Shown here one piece after another: positions 27,501 through 39,095 of a stretch of 64,000 nucleotides of DNA. The position numbers and the translations under genes were made by a program. The first letter of the stretch is position 1. Each line of letters opens with the position of its first letter. Source of the DNA: Candidatus Acidiferrum sp. (GTDB lineage Bacteria; Acidobacteriota; Terriglobia; Acidiferrales; UBA7541); the NCBI GenBank assembly GCA_035524135.1, contig DATKPM010000104.1, positions 27,718 to 91,717 on the forward strand, given 5' to 3'. The notes beneath the pieces were generated by a model that did not search any database, had not been told where the DNA came from, and saw nothing but the letters and a program-made list of their open reading frames with translations.

Positions 27501-27719
27501 ATGCTGAACGCTCTTCGCTATTACTGGATTATCGCGAAAGGGCATCGATTGAGGCCGTGGACTTCGCCTTACATCCAATGGCGGCTGGAAACATTCTTCG
27601 GCAATGAGGCCGCGGGATTGACGGCGAGCAAATTCTTCGGACTCATGTGGCGGAACAGGGACAGAATGGAACATTTTTTGGACTGGGTGGAGGATTCGAG
27701 AAGGCGAACCCGGCATTGA
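27501..27719 (+). CDS. Hypothetical 72-aa Trp/Arg-rich protein
   Basis: MLNALRYYWIIAKGHRLRPWTSPYIQWRLETFFGNEAAGLTASKFFGLMWRNRDRMEHFLDWVEDSRRRTRH. Coding-like codon pattern but no clear SD. This is the only plausible start in that frame after the divergent TPR gene. Confidence 0.35.
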   Translation: MLNALRYYWIIAKGHRLRPWTSPYIQWRLETFFGNEAAGLTASKFFGLMWRNRDRMEHFLDWVEDSRRRTRH

Positions 27720-30733: not shown

Positions 30734-31264
30734 CTACACGATGTGGTCGAGCAGGATGGAAGAGGCTTCACCCTCTGTAAGCATACCCTTGGTGACGAGC
30801 AGTCGCAGTAGGCGAGTGATCGCGCGCATCGACTTTGCGTCTGGAGCCTCCGCGTGCCGAACGACCGGGTGGTGCTCAATCGATGCTGGCTTCTCTGCGA
30901 TACCGTCTGAGAGCCAAGCTTGCAAATCCGATTGCTGGCTATCGCTGAGGTTAACGAACGAGACGCCCATACCCATTCCGCTCTGCGAGTAGACGATCAT
31001 CCCGTCCGTGCGAAACTCGCTCTTTCCTTTCGAGATCCGGACATGGACGCGAGTTCCGACGGGAAGAGGGTTGGTGGTGTCGATGAAACATCCGCCGGGG
31101 CCCAAATCCATCGTTCTGGTTGCAAAGCGTGCGCCGGTCACCTCTTCGATGACCTCGGCAGTTGCGGCAAATAACTGACGGTCTGATGTTCGCCGTTCGG
31201 CTTCCTTCACCGCCGCCGATTTTCCCGCCTCTGTAGAAGGATGAGTCTTGTGCTGGTGAGTCAT
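30734..31264 (-). CDS. PilZ-domain protein with a C-terminal extension (tandem copy 2 of 3)
   Basis: ERRTSDR (RRxxxR) and DLGPGG (variant DxSxxG). Start moved to ATG 31264 (MTHQHK...). Confidence 0.7.
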   Translation of the reverse strand: MTHQHKTHPSTEAGKSAAVKEAERRTSDRQLFAATAEVIEEVTGARFATRTMDLGPGGCFIDTTNPLPVGTRVHVRISKGKSEFRTDGMIVYSQSGMGMGVSFVNLSDSQQSDLQAWLSDGIAEKPASIEHHPVVRHAEAPDAKSMRAITRLLRLLVTKGMLTEGEASSILLDHIV

Positions 31265-31378
31265 TTGTCCTCGGTCCTGGCTCGCGGGCTGCAATTCACA
31301 AGTGCGCCGCGTAAATGTCGTTCCGGCCCGTAGCGCTTGCATTCTGTTGCAGCACCGGACCGTCACTCCAACAAATCT

Positions 31379-31726
31379 CTAGAGTAAGAATTGCACCGCC
31401 ACACCCTGCGTGCCGTCCGTGCGCTCTTCCAGGCGAACAACGGTGCCAAGAAATTTTTTGTGAGCCGACACCTTTTCACCGAACGGGAATTTCAGGATCA
31501 ACCTCATGCCGGTGAAGTAGTGCGGCATGCAGGAGAGGAAATAGAGGCCTTCTCGGGAGAAGTCCGTGACCTCACCAACGTCCATGATCTCCGCGAAACG
31601 GGCGTCGAAGGGCTGCACCTGCACAGGCAGGGAGACGCGAAGCCTTCGCCTCTTCCTCGCCTCGACTCCTTTGGAGTGGCGCTTTTCACCCGATGATTGC
31701 TTGGGTTCGAGAATAGCCGTCGTCAC
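31379..31726 (-). CDS. PilZ-domain protein (tandem copy 1 of 3)
   Basis: RKRRRLR (RxxxR) and DFSREG (DxSxxG). I place the start at GTG 31726, which has GGAGGA 5 nt upstream. The track start at 31894 adds a Cys/His/Leu-rich segment that is unlikely to be real. Confidence 0.7.
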   Translation of the reverse strand: MTTAILEPKQSSGEKRHSKGVEARKRRRLRVSLPVQVQPFDARFAEIMDVGEVTDFSREGLYFLSCMPHYFTGMRLILKFPFGEKVSAHKKFLGTVVRLEERTDGTQGVAVQFLL

Positions 31727-32040
31727 AAGAATCCTCCGCGCCCGCCGCTCTAGGCGGCATTGCCCCTCATGCAAGCTAAGTCTATGAAGGCAAATCGGCT
31801 GCCCCAATAGGCCGAGGGTACTAGTTGGGGGAAACGGGTGTTCAATCTGCCAGCAGTCCCCGGAAAGCAGGTGCGTAGCTGTGCGGCATATCATTGAGGC
31901 ACCGGCCGATGTGCCAAGGGGGTGTAACTAACTTATCCGCCATGGATTAGCTACAGAAGGGAAGGTATGAGGATCCCACATGCACCCGGAACATGCATCC
32001 CTGGGGTCAGTTCCAGGTAAAGAAACCTAGTACGGATCGA

Positions 32041-32907
32041 TCAGGGGAGCGACGCGGCACGGGTCTCGGGCGGACTTGAGAGATCGACAGTGCCGAGCGA
32101 AAGCCGTGGTTTGTGATGAGCGATTCTCCAATTTGCGGCTGCGTTAGAGCCCCCTTCGAAAAACGTGCTTGCCCCAGACCACATCAGCTGTAACCCCGCG
32201 GCGAGAGCGATCAGAGCTACGGCAGCTTTCAACTTCTGCGCTGGAATTCTTCTGTTGAGTAGGCAGCCTGCGAGCACTCCGGGAATTCCCCCGGCGAGGA
32301 GATGCCACAAGCTGGCCGTGCTAATCGTTCCGAGAGTCCAATGGACGACGCTGCCTATGAGCGCCAGGACAAGCCCGAACAAGAGATCGGTGCCCACAAC
32401 CTGACCCGGCGACATTTCCGAATAATTGAGGAGCAGGACAGTTCCAAGCGCGCCAGCTCCTGCCGAGGAAAATCCAGCCTCGATTCCCAGCGGGAACGCA
32501 AGCCACGGCAGCCAGCGCGAATTTTTCCGCGCAAAAGTCGGATTCTGCGCGCGCGGGATGAAGCTGATGCTGGCCGTGACAGCGAGCAGAAAGCCAAGCA
32601 GAAAAACGATCGCCAAATCATGCCCATAATTTCCGAGCAAGCGCAGCGCGAGCATTCCCAGGATCAATCCAGGAATTGCGCCTTGTAGAAGCAGCAGAGA
32701 GTAACGCGCATGGACGCGGCGCTCGGCCAAGTAAAAAGGAGCAGCGAGAAGTCTAAGCACGCCGGCAAAAACGAAGGCAGTACCTACAGCTTCCGGCGCA
32801 GGCAGGCCGACAAAGACCAGGAGCGCGGGAACGGTGAAGCTGCCGCCACCAATGCCGGTGAGCCCGACCACCAAGGCAATCGCAAAGCCCAGGAGAGCCT
32901 GCATCAT
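32041..32907 (-). CDS. TauE/SafE-family anion (sulfite/sulfate-type) permease
   Basis: A polytopic protein with GIGGGSFTVPALLV near the N-terminus. Its ATG at 32907 overlaps the cysH TGA (ATGA). It is the last gene of the cys operon. Confidence 0.85.
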   Translation of the reverse strand: MMQALLGFAIALVVGLTGIGGGSFTVPALLVFVGLPAPEAVGTAFVFAGVLRLLAAPFYLAERRVHARYSLLLLQGAIPGLILGMLALRLLGNYGHDLAIVFLLGFLLAVTASISFIPRAQNPTFARKNSRWLPWLAFPLGIEAGFSSAGAGALGTVLLLNYSEMSPGQVVGTDLLFGLVLALIGSVVHWTLGTISTASLWHLLAGGIPGVLAGCLLNRRIPAQKLKAAVALIALAAGLQLMWSGASTFFEGGSNAAANWRIAHHKPRLSLGTVDLSSPPETRAASLP

Positions 32908-33602
32908 TGGAGGTTCTCTGAGACTGTGTGAATGCCGCACTCCAATTTCTTGCCGCCCCAACGACCGGATCGCGGATTATTGGGGTCCGCGGGAAGAGCG
33001 GTGCAGGGCTGGCAGCCAATGCTCAAGTATCCATCGTCGTACTGAGGCAAGTAACTGAGACCGTTTTCCGCCGTGAATCTCCAGACTTGCTTCCACGTCC
33101 AATCGGCCAGAGGACTGATTTTCAAGAGCACCTTTCCACTAGGCAGGCGGTGATGCTCGACTTTCTTCAGGTTTTTCCGCGTCGGCGACTGTTCGCGCCG
33201 CAAGCCCGTAAACCAAATGCCGAAAGGCTCAAGCGATTCCATGAGCGGTTCCACTTTGCGCAGTTGGCAGCACTTCGTGGGGTCGGTGCCATAGAGGATT
33301 CCAAACTCAGATTCCTGCTGGGCGACCGTTTTCTTGGGAAGTACGTTCATCAGGCGGATATTTGTTTCGCGGGCGTATTTGTCACGAAACGCGTAGGTCT
33401 GCGCGAAGTGATAACCCGTGTCGAGAAACAGGACAGGAACATCCGGTCGAAGTTTCCGGAGAAGCTCGAGGACGATGATGTCCTCCGCCTGGAAGCTGCA
33501 AGTGGCGCAGGGACTTGCTTCCGGATGAGAACTCAAGACGATGCGTACAATTTCCTCTGCGGTGTGGTTCTCTAGTTCGTGAAATTCGGCGCTATCGGAC
33601 AT
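32904..33602 (-). CDS. cysH: Phosphoadenosine/adenosine phosphosulfate reductase, APS-reductase type by motif
   Basis: Contains KCCQLRKVEPL (Cys-Cys pair), SIGCQPCT (CxxC) and the C-terminal ECGIH. The CC plus CxxC pattern is the [4Fe-4S] signature of APS-utilising CysH enzymes. Confidence 0.9.
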   Translation of the reverse strand: MSDSAEFHELENHTAEEIVRIVLSSHPEASPCATCSFQAEDIIVLELLRKLRPDVPVLFLDTGYHFAQTYAFRDKYARETNIRLMNVLPKKTVAQQESEFGILYGTDPTKCCQLRKVEPLMESLEPFGIWFTGLRREQSPTRKNLKKVEHHRLPSGKVLLKISPLADWTWKQVWRFTAENGLSYLPQYDDGYLSIGCQPCTALPADPNNPRSGRWGGKKLECGIHTVSENLQ

Positions 33603-33620: not shown

Positions 33621-35351
33621 CTAATTTTGGACTGCGGGAGTTCGAAGCGATTCCGCAACCGCCATCACTTCAGTCGAGTCTATGGTTGAGGGTTGAGGGC
33701 CAGGCGGGAAATTGTGGACGAGGAACCTTGCCGACAGTGCATCAGGCAAATAGGTGCGGGACGAAGAGTCGGGTCCCGCCCAAAAGACAATCAAGAAGCC
33801 GGCGGACAACAGCTTTTCGAGAAGGCGAGAAAGAGAGTTGGGGCTGAACTCGTCATGTCCAATGAGAATGGATTCAAAGCCTTCTGAAAAAAGAAGAGCT
33901 TCCGTGCGTTTTGCATCTTCCAATTCTCCGACGATAGAAAACACGGCTGGACGATGACCATGCCGCTCGTGACGCCGCTCGACAGAGAGTTCGTCGGGAG
34001 ACCCGTCCGGGTGCAGGGCGACCGTTTCACCCTCACTGAGAAACGAAACCGAAAGATCCTCGCGAATCATGCCCGCACCGAGCGTGGCGTTGGAGACTGG
34101 ATCGATCAAAATGAAGCTGCCGGTCGTCCGGTTGCGCTCGTAGGGATCGAAAAAGAGCGGACTGCTTGTTTCGAATTCGATGGCGGCGATCCCGTTCATT
34201 TCGAGTGCATCGGCCGCGCGGGTTCCCGCGGCGTTCGGGTCGACGAAGAAGCGGATTTTCCCGGGAGTCGCCTTCACGTGCCGGCCGGCATGTTTGGCGA
34301 GATACTTCGTTCCCACTTCCAAAGGCGCCGGGTGCAGCCACACGACCATGGCCAAAAAATGGTTGGAAATTCGCGGCAAGGCGTGAGAGGACACCAGCAT
34401 GTCTCCACGGCTCAGGTCGATTTCGTTCTGCAGCTTCAGAACGACCGATTGAGAAAGAGACGCGGAATCCAATTCGCCGTCATAACTTACAATCGCTTCG
34501 ACAACGGCCTGGCGCCTTGAAGGAAGTGCAATTAGCGAGTCGCCCGGGTGTATGACCCCGCTTGCGACCCGCCCCGCAAAACCGCGAAAGCCCGCATGGG
34601 GACGAATGACTGTCTGAACGGGAAAGCGGACTGCTTCCATTTCCGTGCGAGAAGGGATTTCCACGGTTTCCAGAAACTCAAGCATCGATGGGCCGGAATA
34701 CCAGGGCATCCGACCGCTGGCGGATACGACGTTGTCCCCGTCCAGAGCGCTCACCGGCGCGCAATGGACATGTGGAATCCCGATGCGCCGCGCCAAGGCG
34801 ATGAAATCCTGCTGAAGGTTCTGAAACGCTTTCTGTTCGAAGCCAACAAGGTCCATTTTATTGATGGCGGCCAGGACATGCGGAATGCCGAGTAGGCTGG
34901 CGATGTACAGATGACGGTGCGTCTGCGGCAGGAGTCCCTTGGCCGCGTCGACAAGGATCACCGCAAGGTCGGCCGTGGAGGCTCCTGTCGCCATGTTGCG
35001 TGTGTATTCCTCATGCCCAGGCGTGTCGGCGATGATGAATCTTCGACGGGAAGTGCTGAAGTAACGATAGGCGACATCAATGGTGATGCCTTGTTCGCGC
35101 TCGGCGCGCAGTCCGTCGGTGAGAAGCGAAAGATCGATCGCGCGGCCGGAGCGATTGACGCGGCTGTTCTTCACGGAGGCCAATTGGTCTTCATAGACGG
35201 ATTTGGAATCATGGAGCAACCTGCCGATGAGCGTGGATTTGCCGTCGTCCACGCTGCCTGCTGTGGTGAAGCGGAGGAGTTCCTTGTTTAGGTCATTCTC
35301 AAGGAATGCAGCGAAGTCCGGGGTAGCCGCGAACTTTTCGGCAGCAAGCAT
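33621..35351 (-). CDS. cysN: Sulfate adenylyltransferase subunit 1 (CysN GTPase) with a degenerate APS-kinase-like C-terminal domain
   Basis: G1 is GSVDDGKST, G3 is DTPGHEEY and G4 is NKMD. Residues about 431-576 resemble CysC, but the Walker A position reads GELEDAKRT. Confidence 0.9.
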   Translation of the reverse strand: MLAAEKFAATPDFAAFLENDLNKELLRFTTAGSVDDGKSTLIGRLLHDSKSVYEDQLASVKNSRVNRSGRAIDLSLLTDGLRAEREQGITIDVAYRYFSTSRRRFIIADTPGHEEYTRNMATGASTADLAVILVDAAKGLLPQTHRHLYIASLLGIPHVLAAINKMDLVGFEQKAFQNLQQDFIALARRIGIPHVHCAPVSALDGDNVVSASGRMPWYSGPSMLEFLETVEIPSRTEMEAVRFPVQTVIRPHAGFRGFAGRVASGVIHPGDSLIALPSRRQAVVEAIVSYDGELDSASLSQSVVLKLQNEIDLSRGDMLVSSHALPRISNHFLAMVVWLHPAPLEVGTKYLAKHAGRHVKATPGKIRFFVDPNAAGTRAADALEMNGIAAIEFETSSPLFFDPYERNRTTGSFILIDPVSNATLGAGMIREDLSVSFLSEGETVALHPDGSPDELSVERRHERHGHRPAVFSIVGELEDAKRTEALLFSEGFESILIGHDEFSPNSLSRLLEKLLSAGFLIVFWAGPDSSSRTYLPDALSARFLVHNFPPGPQPSTIDSTEVMAVAESLRTPAVQN

Positions 35352-36328
35352 CAGAAGTAGCCCTCTCGCTTCTTGATTTCCATCGAGCCTTCTTCGTCAT
35401 GATCGATGGCCCGGTTTTCGCGCTCTGACCTGCGGAATGAAATCATTTCCTCGATGATTTTGGGAACCGTGTCGGCTTCGGAGCGGATGGCGCCGGTGCA
35501 GGGCACGCAGCCGAGAGAACGCATCCTGCAAACGACTTGCTCGATGTGTTCGCCTGGCAAAAGGCGATCGGAGGGAGTTGTCACGATCAGGGAACCATTG
35601 CGATTCACCACTTCACGCAACTTCGCAAAATAGAGAGGGACAATCGGAATGCGTTCGACATGGATATAGAGCCAGATATCCAATTCCGTCCAATTCGAGA
35701 GGGGAAATACGCGGATGCTTTCGCCCTTGTTGATGCGCGCGTTGAAGATATTCCAGAGCTCGGGCCTCTGGTTTTTGGGGTCCCATTGGCCGTGCACATC
35801 ACGGAAGGAATAGATGCGCTCTTTCGCGCGCGATTTTTCTTCGTCACGCCGCGCGCCGCCAAAAGCAGCGTCAAATCCGCCAGCGTTGAGAGCGTCGAGA
35901 AGGGACTTGGTCTTGAGCAGGCCGCAGCATTTCTGGGTGCCAAGCTTGAAAGGATTCGCCCCCTGGTCGAGCGCCTGGCGATTCTGGTGGACGATCAATT
36001 CGGCGCCGATTTCCTTGGTATACCGGTCGCGAAATTCGATCATTTCCGGGAATTTGTAGCTTGTGTCGATATGCAATAAAGGAAAAGGAATTTTGCCGGG
36101 ATAAAAGGCCTTCTGAGCGAGCCGCAACATCACCGACGAATCCTTGCCGATCGAATAAAGCATTACGGGATGAGCAAATTCCGAAGCAGCCTCGCGGAGA
36201 ATGTAAATGCTCTCGGCCTCAAGCCACTGGAGATGATTCAGGCGCCTAGGGGAAGGGAAGCCTTTCTCTTTTCTGCCAACTGTCCTTGGGCTTTGCCCTT
36301 GAAAATGTTCCGTCGTTGCACTTGCCAT
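35351..36328 (-). CDS. cysD: Sulfate adenylyltransferase subunit 2 (CysD)
   Basis: Contains [23 protein letters not shown] (PP-loop) and [21 protein letters not shown]. Its stop overlaps the cysN ATG (TGATG at 35353-35349). Start placed at ATG 36328 with GGAG upstream. The track start at 36370 lies inside the terminator stem. Confidence 0.9.
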
Positions 36329-36353
36329 GGTTCTTGGTCTCCAAAGAAGGCGT

Positions 36354-36392
36354 GAAAACAAAAAACCCATCGCCAGAGATTCTGGCGATGGG
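36354..36392 (-). terminator. Intrinsic terminator (attenuator) in the cysD leader
   Basis: On the - strand, CCCAUCGCCAG (36392-36382), loop AAUCU, CUGGCGAUGGG (36376-36366), then UUUUUUGUUUUC (36365-36354). The stem is a perfect 11 bp. Confidence 0.75.
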
Positions 36393-36454
36393 CTGGATGA
36401 ATTGCGACTCGACTAGTCCAGGATTCTTAGGCCGTGAGCCTCCCTTCGCCAGAA
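36380..36454 (-). promoter_or_regulatory. Candidate antiterminator pairing that competes with the cysD-leader terminator
   Basis: UUCUGGCGAAGGG (36454-36442, inside the sORF 3' third) can pair with CCCAUCGCCAGAA (36392-36380). That gives 9 bp, one A.A mismatch, then 3 bp, and it sequesters the entire 5' arm of the terminator. Confidence 0.55.
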
Positions 36455-36519
36455 GACACGTTGTCCCAACAAGTACAACAACAAGCCATCGTGCCGTTCA
36501 GACGAAAACTCAGTGCCAT
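36427..36519 (-). CDS. Candidate leader peptide, 30 aa, poly-Cys (MALSFRLNGTMACCCTCWDNVSSGEGRLTA)
   Basis: Found by hand on the - strand and too short for the ORF track. ATG at 36519-36517 and TAA at 36429-36427. Codons 13, 14, 15 and 17 are all UGU (36483-36469). The ATG starts 8 nt after the -10 hexamer, which suggests a leaderless mRNA. Confidence 0.55.
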   Translation of the reverse strand: MALSFRLNGTMACCCTCWDNVSSGEGRLTA

Positions 36520-36526
36520 GGCTTAA

Positions 36527-36555
36527 ATCATAGAGCAGGTCATGCAGGCTTGCAA
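36527..36555 (-). promoter_or_regulatory. Sigma-70-like promoter of the cys leader (TTGCAA-17-TATGAT)
   Basis: On the - strand, TTGCAA lies at 36555-36550, followed by a 17-nt spacer and TATGAT at 36532-36527. Confidence 0.6.
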
Positions 36556-36596: not shown

Positions 36597-37034
36597 CTAC
36601 TTCTTCGACGAGTCCTGCGTGGTGGGTTTAGGCAAAACACTTGCGCTTCCTGTGTGCCGCTTCCTCTGTGAGGGGTCCCAATCTTCGGGTGGGAACATGA
36701 TGCGCCAAAATAGGGGCGAGCGCTCGGCAAACTGGAGTCCGACCTGGATGCGGTCACCCTCTTTCTGCCCGAGGAACATAACCTGGCAGGGAAGCTCCTC
36801 GGCTGTTTTCGAATTAATGAGCATTACCTCCTGGGCTCGTTCCAGAGCGCTTTTCATGAGGACGAGGCAGCCGTGGGCGTTGACCGTGACCGTATGAGTT
36901 TTTTCCTCGAAAACCTGGCCTTTGTAGGTTCCCTTCACAATGACGGGCATCATGATCTGCACGCGTTGAGTCCGCCGCTTCTTTTCGTAGGGTTCGGGAA
37001 GCTGCGGCTGGGTCGGGATTTTCGTCTCAGACAT
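36597..37034 (-). CDS. PilZ-domain protein
   Basis: KKRRTQR (RRxxxR), then a beta-rich region ending in FAERSPLFWRIMFPPEDW. Start moved to ATG 37034 with an AAGGAGAG RBS. Confidence 0.7.
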   Translation of the reverse strand: MSETKIPTQPQLPEPYEKKRRTQRVQIMMPVIVKGTYKGQVFEEKTHTVTVNAHGCLVLMKSALERAQEVMLINSKTAEELPCQVMFLGQKEGDRIQVGLQFAERSPLFWRIMFPPEDWDPSQRKRHTGSASVLPKPTTQDSSKK

Positions 37035-37277
37035 GATCTCTCCTTGAAAATCTTCTCGCTTTACGGACCCTCGCGCAACCAATCTCCAAGCGAATGCGTG
37101 CAGAAGCTAAATAGGGCATTTTCTGTTTTGAGGGCCAAACGAAGGCAAGAGTTGCCAAAGCCACGGCCCGAAGTTTGAAAAAGTACCAGATACTCTTTCT
37201 CTACAAGTGCGGTTTACGCCGCGCCGCACGGTCCCGTTTGCCTCTATTCTTGGGGTATCGGCTTCCAGCTATTTTCT

Positions 37278-39095
37278 ATGAGTGAAAGCTCCAATCCGCC
37301 GCGTCCTGGTGAGCCACGGCCCATCGCCGCCCGCGACACCGTACTCTTGACGCCCTCTTCCACGGACTCACGCTTATCCGGGCAGCAACAGCCCGCAAAC
37401 TCGCCGGACGTGCAAGGGACGGTCTTGGTTAGCAACATCAGCCCGGCCGCACTTGCTGCTCTCGGGCAGCGCTACGACATCCTGGCAGAGGCCGGGCACG
37501 GCAGCATGGGGAATGTCTATAAGGCTCGGGACCGGGAGACCGGCGAAATTGTTGCGCTCAAACTCCTGAAGCCGGAAATCGCCTCGGATCAGGCGATGAT
37601 GGAGCGATTCAAGAACGAGTTGCTGTTCGCACGGAAGATCACACACAAGAATGTTTGCCGCGTCTACGACTTCAACCGCATCGCCGGCGTTGCCTATACC
37701 TCAATGGAATTCGTCGAGGGCGAAAGCCTGCGCTCGGTCCTCACCCGGTTTGGCGGTCTTCCCACGCGCAAAGGCGTGGACATCGCTCTGCAAATCTGCT
37801 CGGGGCTGAAGGAAGCTCATGCGCAGGGAATCGTCCACCGCGACCTGAAGCCTGAAAACGTGATGGTCGATGGGCAGGGCAACGTGAAGATCATGGACTT
37901 CGGGATCGCGCGGTCGATGGACATGGCCACTCGCCTTACGGGAAGCATGGTCGGAACGCCTGCCTACATGGCACCCGAGCAAGTGGCGGGCAAGCCGGTG
38001 GACTACCGCACGGATATCTACTCGCTCGGCTTGGTTCTCTACGAAGTGTTTACCGGTGTGCCTGCCTTTCATGCAGACACGGCTGTCGCGGTGGCGCTGA
38101 AGCAGATGAATGAGGCTGCCCCGCCGCCGCACACCATAGACCCGTCTTTTCCCGCGCCAATCGAGCGCGTGATTCTTCGCTGCCTCGAGAAGGAGCCGGC
38201 AAAGCGCTTCGCTTCGGTTGCGGAATTGGCGCAAGCGCTCAGCCCCTCTGGCGTACAGCCGAGCGCGATGCGGGCCGTTGCTCCTGCCATGATGCCACAT
38301 CCGCCGTTGCGGAGTTCTGCGGTCTCAGCCGAGAGCGGGCATATGGCAGCTCCCCCTGCAAGCGCCGTGACAAATCCCTTTTATTCCCCCTCCGCTGTTC
38401 CGCCGAAGCCGAAACACGGAACGTCGCCGCTGGTTTGGCTGCTCCTGGGAGCCGCAGTGGCACTGGTGGCACTGGGAGGGCAAGAGTGGATTGCACAGGC
38501 GAGATTGGCCGAGCACATTCCGCCTCCGGCGTTGCCCCGCGCACTTGTGCCGGTACCGCCTGGCTTTGCGCTTAACGCTGAGCCTTCTTCGGCGTCGACC
38601 GACGGTTCGCCAGCAACAAACAGCCCATCTGGACAGCAGCCTTCTGCGGCGAACCCGACAGCGCCTGCACAGCAGGCCGCAGACGACTCGAAGACCGACC
38701 CGGGTGAGGCAACGTCCAGTCCCGCTGGTACGTCAACGAAGGCCGGCACTGCTGCAAATCCCCCGAGTGGGCGCAGCGAAGAAAGTCACCGAGCGACGGG
38801 CGCTTCCAAGGAAGCATCTGCGCCTGTCGCGGCATTCCACACCGGGGCATATTTATGGGTGGGGCGGTATGAAAGGAAAGAAGGCGCGGAGGATGCGGCC
38901 AAACAGATCGAGGACTTGGGGCTTCCCGCGCTCGTGGTGCCGCGGCGAGGTCTTTTCGAACAGTTTTATATCGTGCTTTCAGGCCCCTTCGAGGATAAAC
39001 GGCTGTCGAGCGTGACGGAGTGGTTGCGGGAACAAGGCTTCCGCGACGTTCACGAATTCAAGTGGCCAGTACCAAAGCAAGAGAAGAATCCATAG
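37278..39095 (+). CDS. Ser/Thr protein kinase with one TM segment, a low-complexity linker and a C-terminal SPOR-like domain
   Basis: Hanks motifs are present: GHGSMGNVYKA...VALK, HRDLKPEN, DFG and APE. There is a hydrophobic helix (LVWLLLGAAVALVAL). The C-terminus (GAYLWVGRYERKEGAEDAAKQIEDLGLPALVV...YIVLSGPFED) has a SPOR-like pattern. Confidence 0.9.
   Translation: MSESSNPPRPGEPRPIAARDTVLLTPSSTDSRLSGQQQPANSPDVQGTVLVSNISPAALAALGQRYDILAEAGHGSMGNVYKARDRETGEIVALKLLKPEIASDQAMMERFKNELLFARKITHKNVCRVYDFNRIAGVAYTSMEFVEGESLRSVLTRFGGLPTRKGVDIALQICSGLKEAHAQGIVHRDLKPENVMVDGQGNVKIMDFGIARSMDMATRLTGSMVGTPAYMAPEQVAGKPVDYRTDIYSLGLVLYEVFTGVPAFHADTAVAVALKQMNEAAPPPHTIDPSFPAPIERVILRCLEKEPAKRFASVAELAQALSPSGVQPSAMRAVAPAMMPHPPLRSSAVSAESGHMAAPPASAVTNPFYSPSAVPPKPKHGTSPLVWLLLGAAVALVALGGQEWIAQARLAEHIPPPALPRALVPVPPGFALNAEPSSASTDGSPATNSPSGQQPSAANPTAPAQQAADDSKTDPGEATSSPAGTSTKAGTAANPPSGRSEESHRATGASKEASAPVAAFHTGAYLWVGRYERKEGAEDAAKQIEDLGLPALVVPRRGLFEQFYIVLSGPFEDKRLSSVTEWLREQGFRDVHEFKWPVPKQEKNP

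Follow-up and report, generated by a model that had tools for sequence, protein, structure and literature searches.

Leader-peptide attenuators of enteric bacteria (trpL, hisL, leuL, thrL, pheL and ilvL), as captured by the Yanofsky model, place an intrinsic terminator just before the first biosynthetic gene and set against it a mutually exclusive antiterminator that uses the 5′ arm of the terminator. To our knowledge, cysteine is absent from the textbook list of amino acids that control transcription through a leader peptide. Here we analyze a 64,000-nucleotide (nt) stretch of DNA from Candidatus Acidiferrum sp. (Acidobacteriota; assembly GCA_035524135.1, contig DATKPM010000104.1, forward-strand positions 27,718 to 91,717), referred to below as the window, in which a cysteine-rich small open reading frame (sORF), predicted to be translated from a leaderless mRNA, and an intrinsic terminator stand in front of the genes cysD-cysN-cysH-tauE. 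We consider it likely, with good confidence, that this leader is a ribosome-mediated transcription attenuator which responds to the level of charged tRNA-Cys and thereby sets read-through into these four genes.

Cysteine leaders of other designs have been reported. In mycobacteria, Ms5788A and its relatives are leaderless sORFs with consecutive Cys codons, read out through ribosome stalling; they precede genes of cysteine and sulfur metabolism, a rhodanese gene among them (Canestrari et al. 2020). Control in that system is translational: the Cys tract pairs with a downstream Shine-Dalgarno sequence, an intrinsic terminator is lacking, and cysteine does not affect transcription (bioRxiv 10.1101/834739; Mol Microbiol 114:93). 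According to the same authors, attenuation mediated by a cysteine upstream open reading frame (uORF) had not been described before their work, and their M. smegmatis system operates without termination (bioRxiv 10.1101/834739). For Actinobacteria, Seliverstov et al. (2005) predicted Cys leader peptides that are explicitly without terminators or conserved hairpins, and proposed Rho dependence (PMC1262725). Of earlier terminator-based Cys attenuators, the one nearest to the present case is uORFC-8-2, upstream of cysS in Rhodobacterales; Brewer et al. (2021) predicted from sequence that its Cys codons and intrinsic terminator together act as a ribosome-mediated attenuator (PMC8632094).

The acidobacterial leader has in common with the enteric attenuators both the position of the terminator and an antiterminator that would share its 5′ arm. 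It differs from them in that cysteine would be the amino acid sensed, in a leaderless sORF without a Shine-Dalgarno sequence, in its occurrence in Acidobacteriota and in the position of the antiterminator strand (region 2), which lies inside the sORF and not after its stop codon. Unlike the trp design, moreover, the leader class to which the window belongs (class A, 43 sequences) has no conserved 1:2 pause or protector hairpin, and the leader has no Rfam match. With the mycobacterial sORFs it shares the predicted leaderless arrangement, the consecutive Cys codons, the neighboring sulfur genes and, as proposed here, ribosome stalling as the read-out; unlike them, it has a conserved terminator/antiterminator pair, and no pairing with a Shine-Dalgarno sequence was found. 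Like the actinobacterial leader peptides, it is a short reading frame with a run of Cys codons upstream of a cys operon. The α-proteobacterial uORFC-8-2 differs in carrying two tandem Cys codons, mostly UGC, inside a stem, and in preceding the tRNA synthetase gene cysS only; it is not described as leaderless, and no sulfur-assimilation regulon is attached to it. The openly accessible full-text literature yielded no such element for Acidobacteria or before sulfate-assimilation genes. The initial annotation of this DNA, which knew of no terminator-based version in this kind of genome, agrees with that result, but its claim to novelty has to be narrowed, as a terminator-based Cys uORF had already been predicted in Rhodobacterales (PMC8632094). 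Taken with the comparative data below, a classical attenuation mechanism with four differences (cysteine-sensing, leaderless, built of two helices with the antiterminator strand in the sORF, and regulon-wide for sulfur genes) appears well supported.

Organization of the leader

The leader is compact, about 165 nt in all, and its elements lie on the minus strand of the window:

36550–36555 (−): −35 hexamer TTGCAA (sequence reading and promoter scan)
36527–36532 (−): −10 hexamer TATGAT (sequence reading and promoter scan)
36427–36519 (−): leader sORF, 30 codons plus a TAA stop (36429–36427), MALSFRLNGTMACCCTCWDNVSSGEGRLTA (sequence reading)
36469–36483 (−): sensor codons UGU UGU UGU ACU UGU, Cys codons 13–15 and 17 (sequence reading)
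36442–36454 (−): region 2, putative antiterminator 5′ strand UUCUGGCGAAGGG, in the last third of the sORF (folding and covariation)
36436–36440 (−): GGCUC, 5′ strand of a middle helix by which the antiterminator would be lengthened; it closely precedes the stop codon (alignment)
36406–36410 (−): 3′ strand GAGUC of the middle helix (alignment)
36380–36393 (−): region 3, terminator 5′ arm GCCCAUCGCCAGAA, common to the terminator and antiterminator helices (folding and alignment)
36365–36377 (−): region 4, terminator 3′ arm UCUGGCGAUGGGU, which includes a spurious in-frame ATG at 36370 (folding and alignment)
36355–36364 (−): U-tract, U5GU4 following the last U of the stem (sequence reading and terminator scan)
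36338–36342 (−): Shine-Dalgarno sequence GGAGA of cysD (sequence reading)
35351–36328 (−): cysD, 325 amino acids, start codon ATG at 36328

The two promoter hexamers are separated by a 17-nt spacer and form the sole sigma-70-like match that the promoter scan returned between 35800 and 37400. Only 7 nt separate the end of the −10 box from the sORF ATG at 36519, and transcription is predicted to start at, or adjoining, A36519, which would yield a leaderless mRNA. Four of the five sensor codons encode cysteine, each as UGU (36483–36475 and 36471–36469). A reading frame with at least four Cys among six residues occurs once in the whole window, as this sORF, and in three of 1714 control windows of 480 nt taken from related loci. 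It is not annotated as a gene in any of the public assemblies examined.

The terminator hairpin (36394–36364, minus strand) has a stem of 13–14 base pairs (bp), a 3-nt loop and a folding energy of −24 kcal/mol; it is followed by U6GU4, and 26 nt separate the end of the U-tract from the cysD ATG. A generic repeat as the source of this hairpin was ruled out, as the window and each related locus contain a single copy of the motif. The leader as a whole is more stably folded than its shuffled versions (z = −3.3), and its elements together are far beyond chance expectation. The initial annotation had placed a promoter, start codon, sORF, Cys run and stop codon here, all of which are present at those coordinates when the minus strand is read. 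It had also described an intrinsic terminator before cysD, which is present with its U6GU4 tract, although the stem is longer than the 11 bp claimed.

Conservation in related genomes

Species-representative genomes were scanned with CysD, and the best 80 of 580 matches (77–88% identity) were retained; in a CysD protein search, the matches listed were relatives of at least 80% identity. Nearly all 80 loci are labeled Acidobacteriota, Terriglobia or 'Acidoferrales'. Other phylum labels (Limnocylindria, Eremiobacteraceae, Dormiibacterota, Cybelea and Patescibacteria) are attached to metagenome-assembled genomes (MAGs) with near-identical cysD leaders (L004, L010, L019, L040, L069 and P0112), and these are probably acidobacterial contigs that were mis-binned or mislabeled.

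In 73 of the 80 loci, the 450 nt that precede cysD contain a sORF with at least three Cys among six residues, against 5.5% of control windows. A first tally that counted the other seven as lacking the leaderless sORF was overturned on re-inspection: three carry a homologous leader with two Cys codons only (CC), one has its leader 385 nt upstream, one (L030) has it before an SsuABC-like transporter that precedes cysD, and one locus has no upstream sequence, which leaves L071 as the single locus truly without a leader. The corrected count is 78 of 79 cysD loci, so that a Cys-run sORF, whose conservation in orthologous cysD leaders had been proposed as a check, is indeed conserved once the variants are counted. 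The leader sORFs are about 30 codons long and contain 3–8 Cys codons, with a median of five in 74 homologues.

The geometry of the promoter is conserved to a similar degree. In 69 of the 74 leaders, a gap of 5–9 nt separates the pattern TTGnnn-N16–18-TAnnnT from an ATG or GTG start codon, and three more have the −10 box only, which brings those with a gap of 5–9 nt to 72; in 50 the gap is exactly 7 nt. In the same loci, 0.47% of all ATGs show this spacing pattern. The rigid spacing between −10 box and start codon is, at the level of sequence, a signature of leaderless mRNA, and it is from the fixed 7-nt distance that we infer the leaderless state. An earlier survey estimated about 13% of Acidobacteria genes to be leaderless (PMC3160421).

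An intrinsic terminator was detected in 68 of the 74 leaders scanned, with the consensus AACCCACCGCCAGAA-loop-CUGGCnGGUGGGUUUUUUGUUUU and an energy of about −20 kcal/mol. Its distance to cysD is 12–62 nt in 66 of these 68 leaders, which leaves no space for a separate cysD promoter, and about 150 nt in L045 and L068.

Evidence for two mutually exclusive helices

A switch of this type calls for a second helix that competes for the terminator 5′ arm, and a partner strand for such a helix lies within the sORF. When the terminator 3′ arm is removed from the window leader, the minimum-free-energy (MFE) fold pairs UUCUGGCG..GGG (36454–36442) with the terminator 5′ arm, which bears out the pairing that had been proposed for this segment. 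The same holds across the leaders compared, where the best upstream partner of the terminator 5′ arm is the last third of the sORF. Counted from the first base of the final Cys codon, region 2 begins after 12–28 nt (17 nt in the window); the median distance from its end to the stop codon is 8 nt (12 nt in the window).

Covariation was assessed in a structure-naive MAFFT alignment of 68 leaders. The terminator stem is 95% paired, with compensatory changes. The antiterminator together with the adjacent middle helix is 80% paired, as opposed to 26–48% when the partner strand is slid, and 58 alignment cells are changed on both sides; none of 500 shuffles attains the observed antiterminator pairing or covariation score. 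Column 188 of the alignment, an A or G in region 3, covaries with column 96 in region 2 (UA 39, CG 16, UG 11) and also with column 199 in region 4 (AU 38, GC 15). Such three-way covariation is what is expected of mutually exclusive helices with a common strand. In class A, RNAalifold returned the 2:3 antiterminator de novo when region 4 was omitted and the terminator when region 4 was included; the class A sORF alone gave no structure. A second, independent alignment comprised 80 leaders from metagenomes, and here pairing of the 2:3 helix reaches 87% versus 36–48% when slid; because an exact match to the terminator motif was used to pick this set, regions 3 and 4 are in part fixed. The covariation that the initial annotation asked to see in related leaders is thus present for both helices in the MAFFT alignment, and the antiterminator recurs by RNAalifold and in the metagenome set. 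Within the cysD leaders, the middle helix has 73% of its cells paired, and five of its six pairs show double changes.

A trp-like 1:2 helix was also considered. The one present in the window MFE fold (RNA nt 8–16 with 77–85) was rejected, as it shows no covariation and is 58% paired, equal to shuffled sequences. In the absence of a conserved 1:2 protector hairpin in class A, the design is, as judged from sequence, one of two helices and not the four-region trp layout. The 1:2 hairpin characterizes the trp subtype, and membership of the leader-peptide attenuator class does not depend on it.

A divergent leader class, class D (..AACC(C)RLQMTARAAVSC..), is represented by L022 (2745–2879), L028, L036 and L059, with CC-only variants in L053, L064 and L066. 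Class D leaders have a strong hairpin of about −20 kcal/mol with the Cys codons in its 5′ arm, which makes this hairpin a candidate 1:2 protector helix, absent from the class of the window.

Ribosome position and proposed mechanism

The effect of ribosome position was modeled in 68 loci by folding transcripts that end before region 4 with a ribosome footprint, from −15 to +12 relative to the A site, masked; transcripts stopped short of region 4 are the only informative ones for this purpose. With the ribosome placed on the first Cys codon, region 3 pairs with upstream RNA at a median probability of 0.69, and with it on the last at 0.66, compared with 0.43 at the stop codon and 0.59 without a ribosome. 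Region 3 is more sequestered in the stalled state than at the stop codon in 64 of 68 loci for the first Cys codon (Wilcoxon p about 1e-12) and in 59 of 68 for the last (about 1e-10).

Based on these data, we propose the following mechanism. Transcription would start at or adjoining the A of the sORF AUG, and a 70S ribosome would, judging from the promoter geometry, load directly on the leaderless 5′ end and translate the sORF in step with RNA polymerase. When Cys-tRNA is plentiful, the ribosome would pass the UGU cluster and region 2 and arrive at the stop codon, where it would unwind or cover the 3′ part of region 2 and the adjoining strand. Region 3, left free, would then pair with region 4, and the resulting 13-bp hairpin with its U-tract would release RNA polymerase 26 nt before cysD. 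A shortage of Cys-tRNA would instead cause the ribosome to stall with a UGU codon in the A site and its leading edge just upstream of region 2; region 2 would pair with region 3 once the latter is made, the terminator would be blocked and the operon transcribed. The leader would thus very probably turn on the sulfate-assimilation genes when cysteine is short. The proposal draws on elements that are present and conserved, on the covariation of both helices, on their fitting geometry and on the association with sulfur genes described below. The logic of the trp and his attenuators, which the initial annotation had applied to cysteine, is therefore supported by the comparative data.

Several observations weigh against this mechanism or qualify it. 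The difference between 0.66–0.69 and 0.43 is clear, but it is not all-or-none. Of the antiterminator strand, a ribosome at the stop codon covers just the 3′ portion, GGG plus the GGCUC that comes next, so that of the logic first put forward the greater sequestration of region 3 by a stalled ribosome holds in the masked folding, while occlusion from the stop codon is incomplete. Whatever the ribosome mask, the full-length leader favors the terminator at equilibrium; the suggested comparison of folding energies accordingly gives the antiterminator without region 4 and the terminator always at full length. Because equilibrium always favors the terminator, the decision of the switch must be kinetic. 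Classical attenuators behave likewise, their full-length RNA preferring the terminator at equilibrium. Since no conserved 1:2 protector or pause hairpin was found in class A, an untranslated leader is predicted to read through. Support for the middle helix is confined to the cysD subset, with none in the wider metagenome set of 80. Lastly, the relatives compared are MAGs or metagenome contigs only.

Cysteine codons and the genes downstream

The choice of sensor codon is unusual for these genomes. The Cys codons of the leaders are TGT in 288 cases and TGC in 82 (78% UGU), whereas the cysD coding sequences of the same loci have 51 TGT and 312 TGC (14% UGU, 86% UGC), and four genes in the window have no UGU and 16 UGC. 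UGU is decoded by wobble pairing. The use of rare regulatory codons is a further likeness to the enteric attenuators, E. coli leuL being an example. The RNA motif of region 2 encodes S-S-G-A-G in the main leader class but F-R-T-D-A in a second one; being read in different frames, it is under selection as RNA and not as peptide.

A scan of soil metagenomes that used no more than the terminator motif gave 119 matches with enough upstream sequence to be examined. A Cys-run sORF is present in 81 of them and a CC pair in nine more. Where the first gene after the cassette encodes a NirA/Sir-type sulfite reductase hemoprotein, all 24 cases have Cys leaders, as do all 16 before a two-domain rhodanese/3-mercaptopyruvate-type sulfurtransferase and all six before a single-domain rhodanese; CysD follows in 14. 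At locus L030 (1–2910), a Cys leader with its terminator stands before a sulfonate-type ATP-binding cassette (ABC) transporter, comprising an NMT1-like binding protein, an ATPase and a permease, and cysD follows this SsuABC-like transporter in the same direction, an arrangement that points to recruitment of the leader to a different first gene. The genes that the Cys leader would regulate have functions in sulfate, sulfite, thiosulfate or sulfonate assimilation. The leader, first presented as a single candidate before cysD, is indeed present there, but it does not stand alone: it is one member of a family distributed over sulfur genes.

The terminator cassette (CCCACCGCC...GGTGGGTTTT) also precedes aspartate kinase in 16 loci, and none of these has a Cys run. 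Leaderless Thr/Ile-rich sORFs were found instead at L129 and L155, two of the 16 aspartate kinase loci, and at L108 and L179, where the downstream gene is not assigned; one such leader reads MLANVTKRKPSRSKRSIISTTTITTIMCTTTALGDGRNG, and runs include STTTITTIMCTTT and RITSTGTGMSTRIT. Example loci of this non-Cys cassette in the metagenomes are:

L129, terminator 1294–1327 (−)
L118, 2098–2130 (+)
L140 (+)
L155, L179, L108, L146, L190 and L196

Single cases of the terminator cassette were seen before asd (L152), thrB (L119) and ilvC (L181). At L181 (5297–5472, plus strand), the terminator motif lies 143 nt upstream of the ketol-acid reductoisomerase gene (ilvC), and this may be a branched-chain amino-acid leader. 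The Thr/Ile version looks like a sibling of the Cys attenuator placed before aspartate-pathway genes. With Cys leaders and Thr/Ile leaders each before matching genes, the sensor codons appear to track the regulated pathway. On balance, we lean towards the view that Terriglobia use one modular leaderless cassette, with a fixed promoter–AUG geometry and a region-2/terminator unit (CCCACCGCC...GGTGGGUUUU), in which the sensor codons are exchanged: Cys for cysDNH-tauE, sulfite reductase, two rhodanese families and the sulfonate ABC transporter, and Thr/Ile for aspartate kinase, asd and thrB.

Alternative explanations

The conserved sORF, with its good promoter and the strong terminator after it, could be the gene of a functional Cys-rich micropeptide (metal-binding, redox-active or akin to ribosomally synthesized and post-translationally modified peptides), with cysD transcribed independently; Cys-rich small proteins do exist. 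We regard this as extremely improbable. The peptide is conserved only in the Cys run and in the stretch that overlaps region 2, and the latter is read in different frames between classes; the 12–62 nt between terminator and cysD in most loci leave no room for a promoter; rare UGU codons are the opposite of what efficient expression would favor; and neither the covariation of the antiterminator nor the parallel Thr/Ile version before aspartate-pathway genes fits such a peptide. The resemblance to Ms5788A, a leaderless poly-Cys sORF with rhodanese (cysA2 there) among the targets, as in our set (bioRxiv 10.1101/834739), suggests a different possibility, namely that the Cys tract or the leader masks the cysD Shine-Dalgarno sequence, that stalling frees it, and that the hairpin is incidental or stabilizes the RNA. 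Occlusion of the Shine-Dalgarno sequence by the Cys tract was rejected, as shuffled controls form duplexes just as good as those between the two (median z 0.1). That sequence, moreover, lies 23 nt past a conserved terminator that mycobacterial leaders do not have, and translational attenuation of the mycobacterial type is accordingly given little weight.

A conserved terminator/antiterminator pair could equally be governed by a riboswitch or by an RNA that binds a protein or tRNA, the reading frame being incidental, and sulfur genes are often under riboswitches or T-boxes in other phyla. Against this, the scan of the leader with Rfam 15, which covers T-box, SAM-riboswitch and amino-acid leader families, gave no match at the gathering threshold, the best sub-threshold hits (E-values of at least 0.17) falling in unrelated families, and even with E-values up to 10 no Rfam match speaks for a riboswitch. 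There is no conserved structure upstream of region 2, yet the open frame, the fixed start-codon geometry and the Cys run are all kept, and the sensor codons become Thr/Ile before Thr-pathway genes; control by such an RNA is thus very unlikely. A ribosome-dependent attenuator might also read another signal, such as stress on translation in general, oxidation of Cys-tRNA, or the status of selenium or of tRNA modification, given that any slowing at UGU would give read-through and that UGU, as a wobble-decoded codon, is sensitive to the state of the tRNA. We assign this reading only a slight probability, because the regulated genes all belong to sulfate, sulfite, thiosulfate or sulfonate assimilation, which fits end-product control by cysteine. 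The attenuator that senses charged tRNA-Cys remains our preferred explanation.

Gene neighborhood and the cysD start codon

The genes downstream of cysD lie on the same strand:

33621–35351 (−): cysN (NCBIfam match)
32904–33602 (−): cysH, phosphoadenylyl-sulfate/adenylyl-sulfate (PAPS/APS) reductase (NCBIfam match)
32041–32961 (−): tauE, TauE/SafE-family sulfite exporter-like membrane protein (Pfam; longest-ORF coordinates)

The order cysD-cysN-cysH-tauE given in the initial annotation is confirmed by NCBIfam for CysD, CysN and CysH and by Pfam for TauE/SafE; the real start of tauE is probably downstream of the longest-ORF start at 32961. The longest open reading frame of cysD begins at the ATG at 36370, within the terminator 3′ arm, whereas public gene calls and homologues use the 325-residue form from 36328. 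The ATG at 36370 is unique to the window genome, where a compensatory change of a stem pair from C-G to U-A has created it (GATGGG here, GGTGGG elsewhere). The suspicion that the start at 36370 was wrong is therefore justified by the public calls and by this genome-specific change, and the sequence evidence supports 36328 as the true cysD start and 36370 as a longest-ORF artefact.

Three small reading frames that flank the cys operon have PilZ-domain matches (30734–31366, 31379–31894 and 36597–37082, all on the minus strand), the match of the last being weak and under the Pfam cut-off. Upstream of the leader region, a divergent gene (37278–39095, plus strand) encodes a 605-residue Ser/Thr protein kinase with a PknB-like kinase domain.

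Implications

The only Cys uORF system that has been studied experimentally, that of mycobacteria, acts on translation. If the modular cassette is real, it would constitute the first Cys-sensing transcription-attenuation regulon, and no attenuator family before it would have had the translating ribosome itself, in place of a 1:2 hairpin, as anti-antiterminator on a leaderless mRNA. It would also indicate that leaderless translation and attenuation can work together. The Cys and Thr/Ile versions on one cassette would offer a natural swap experiment on the evolution of attenuators. For annotation, the analysis corrects the start of cysD and flags a class of sORFs that gene callers have missed. 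Acidobacteria are abundant in soil and hard to culture, and their gene regulation is almost unexplored; the leader would allow their sulfur-assimilation regulon to be defined from the DNA itself and would aid the annotation of rhodanese- and TauE-type genes.

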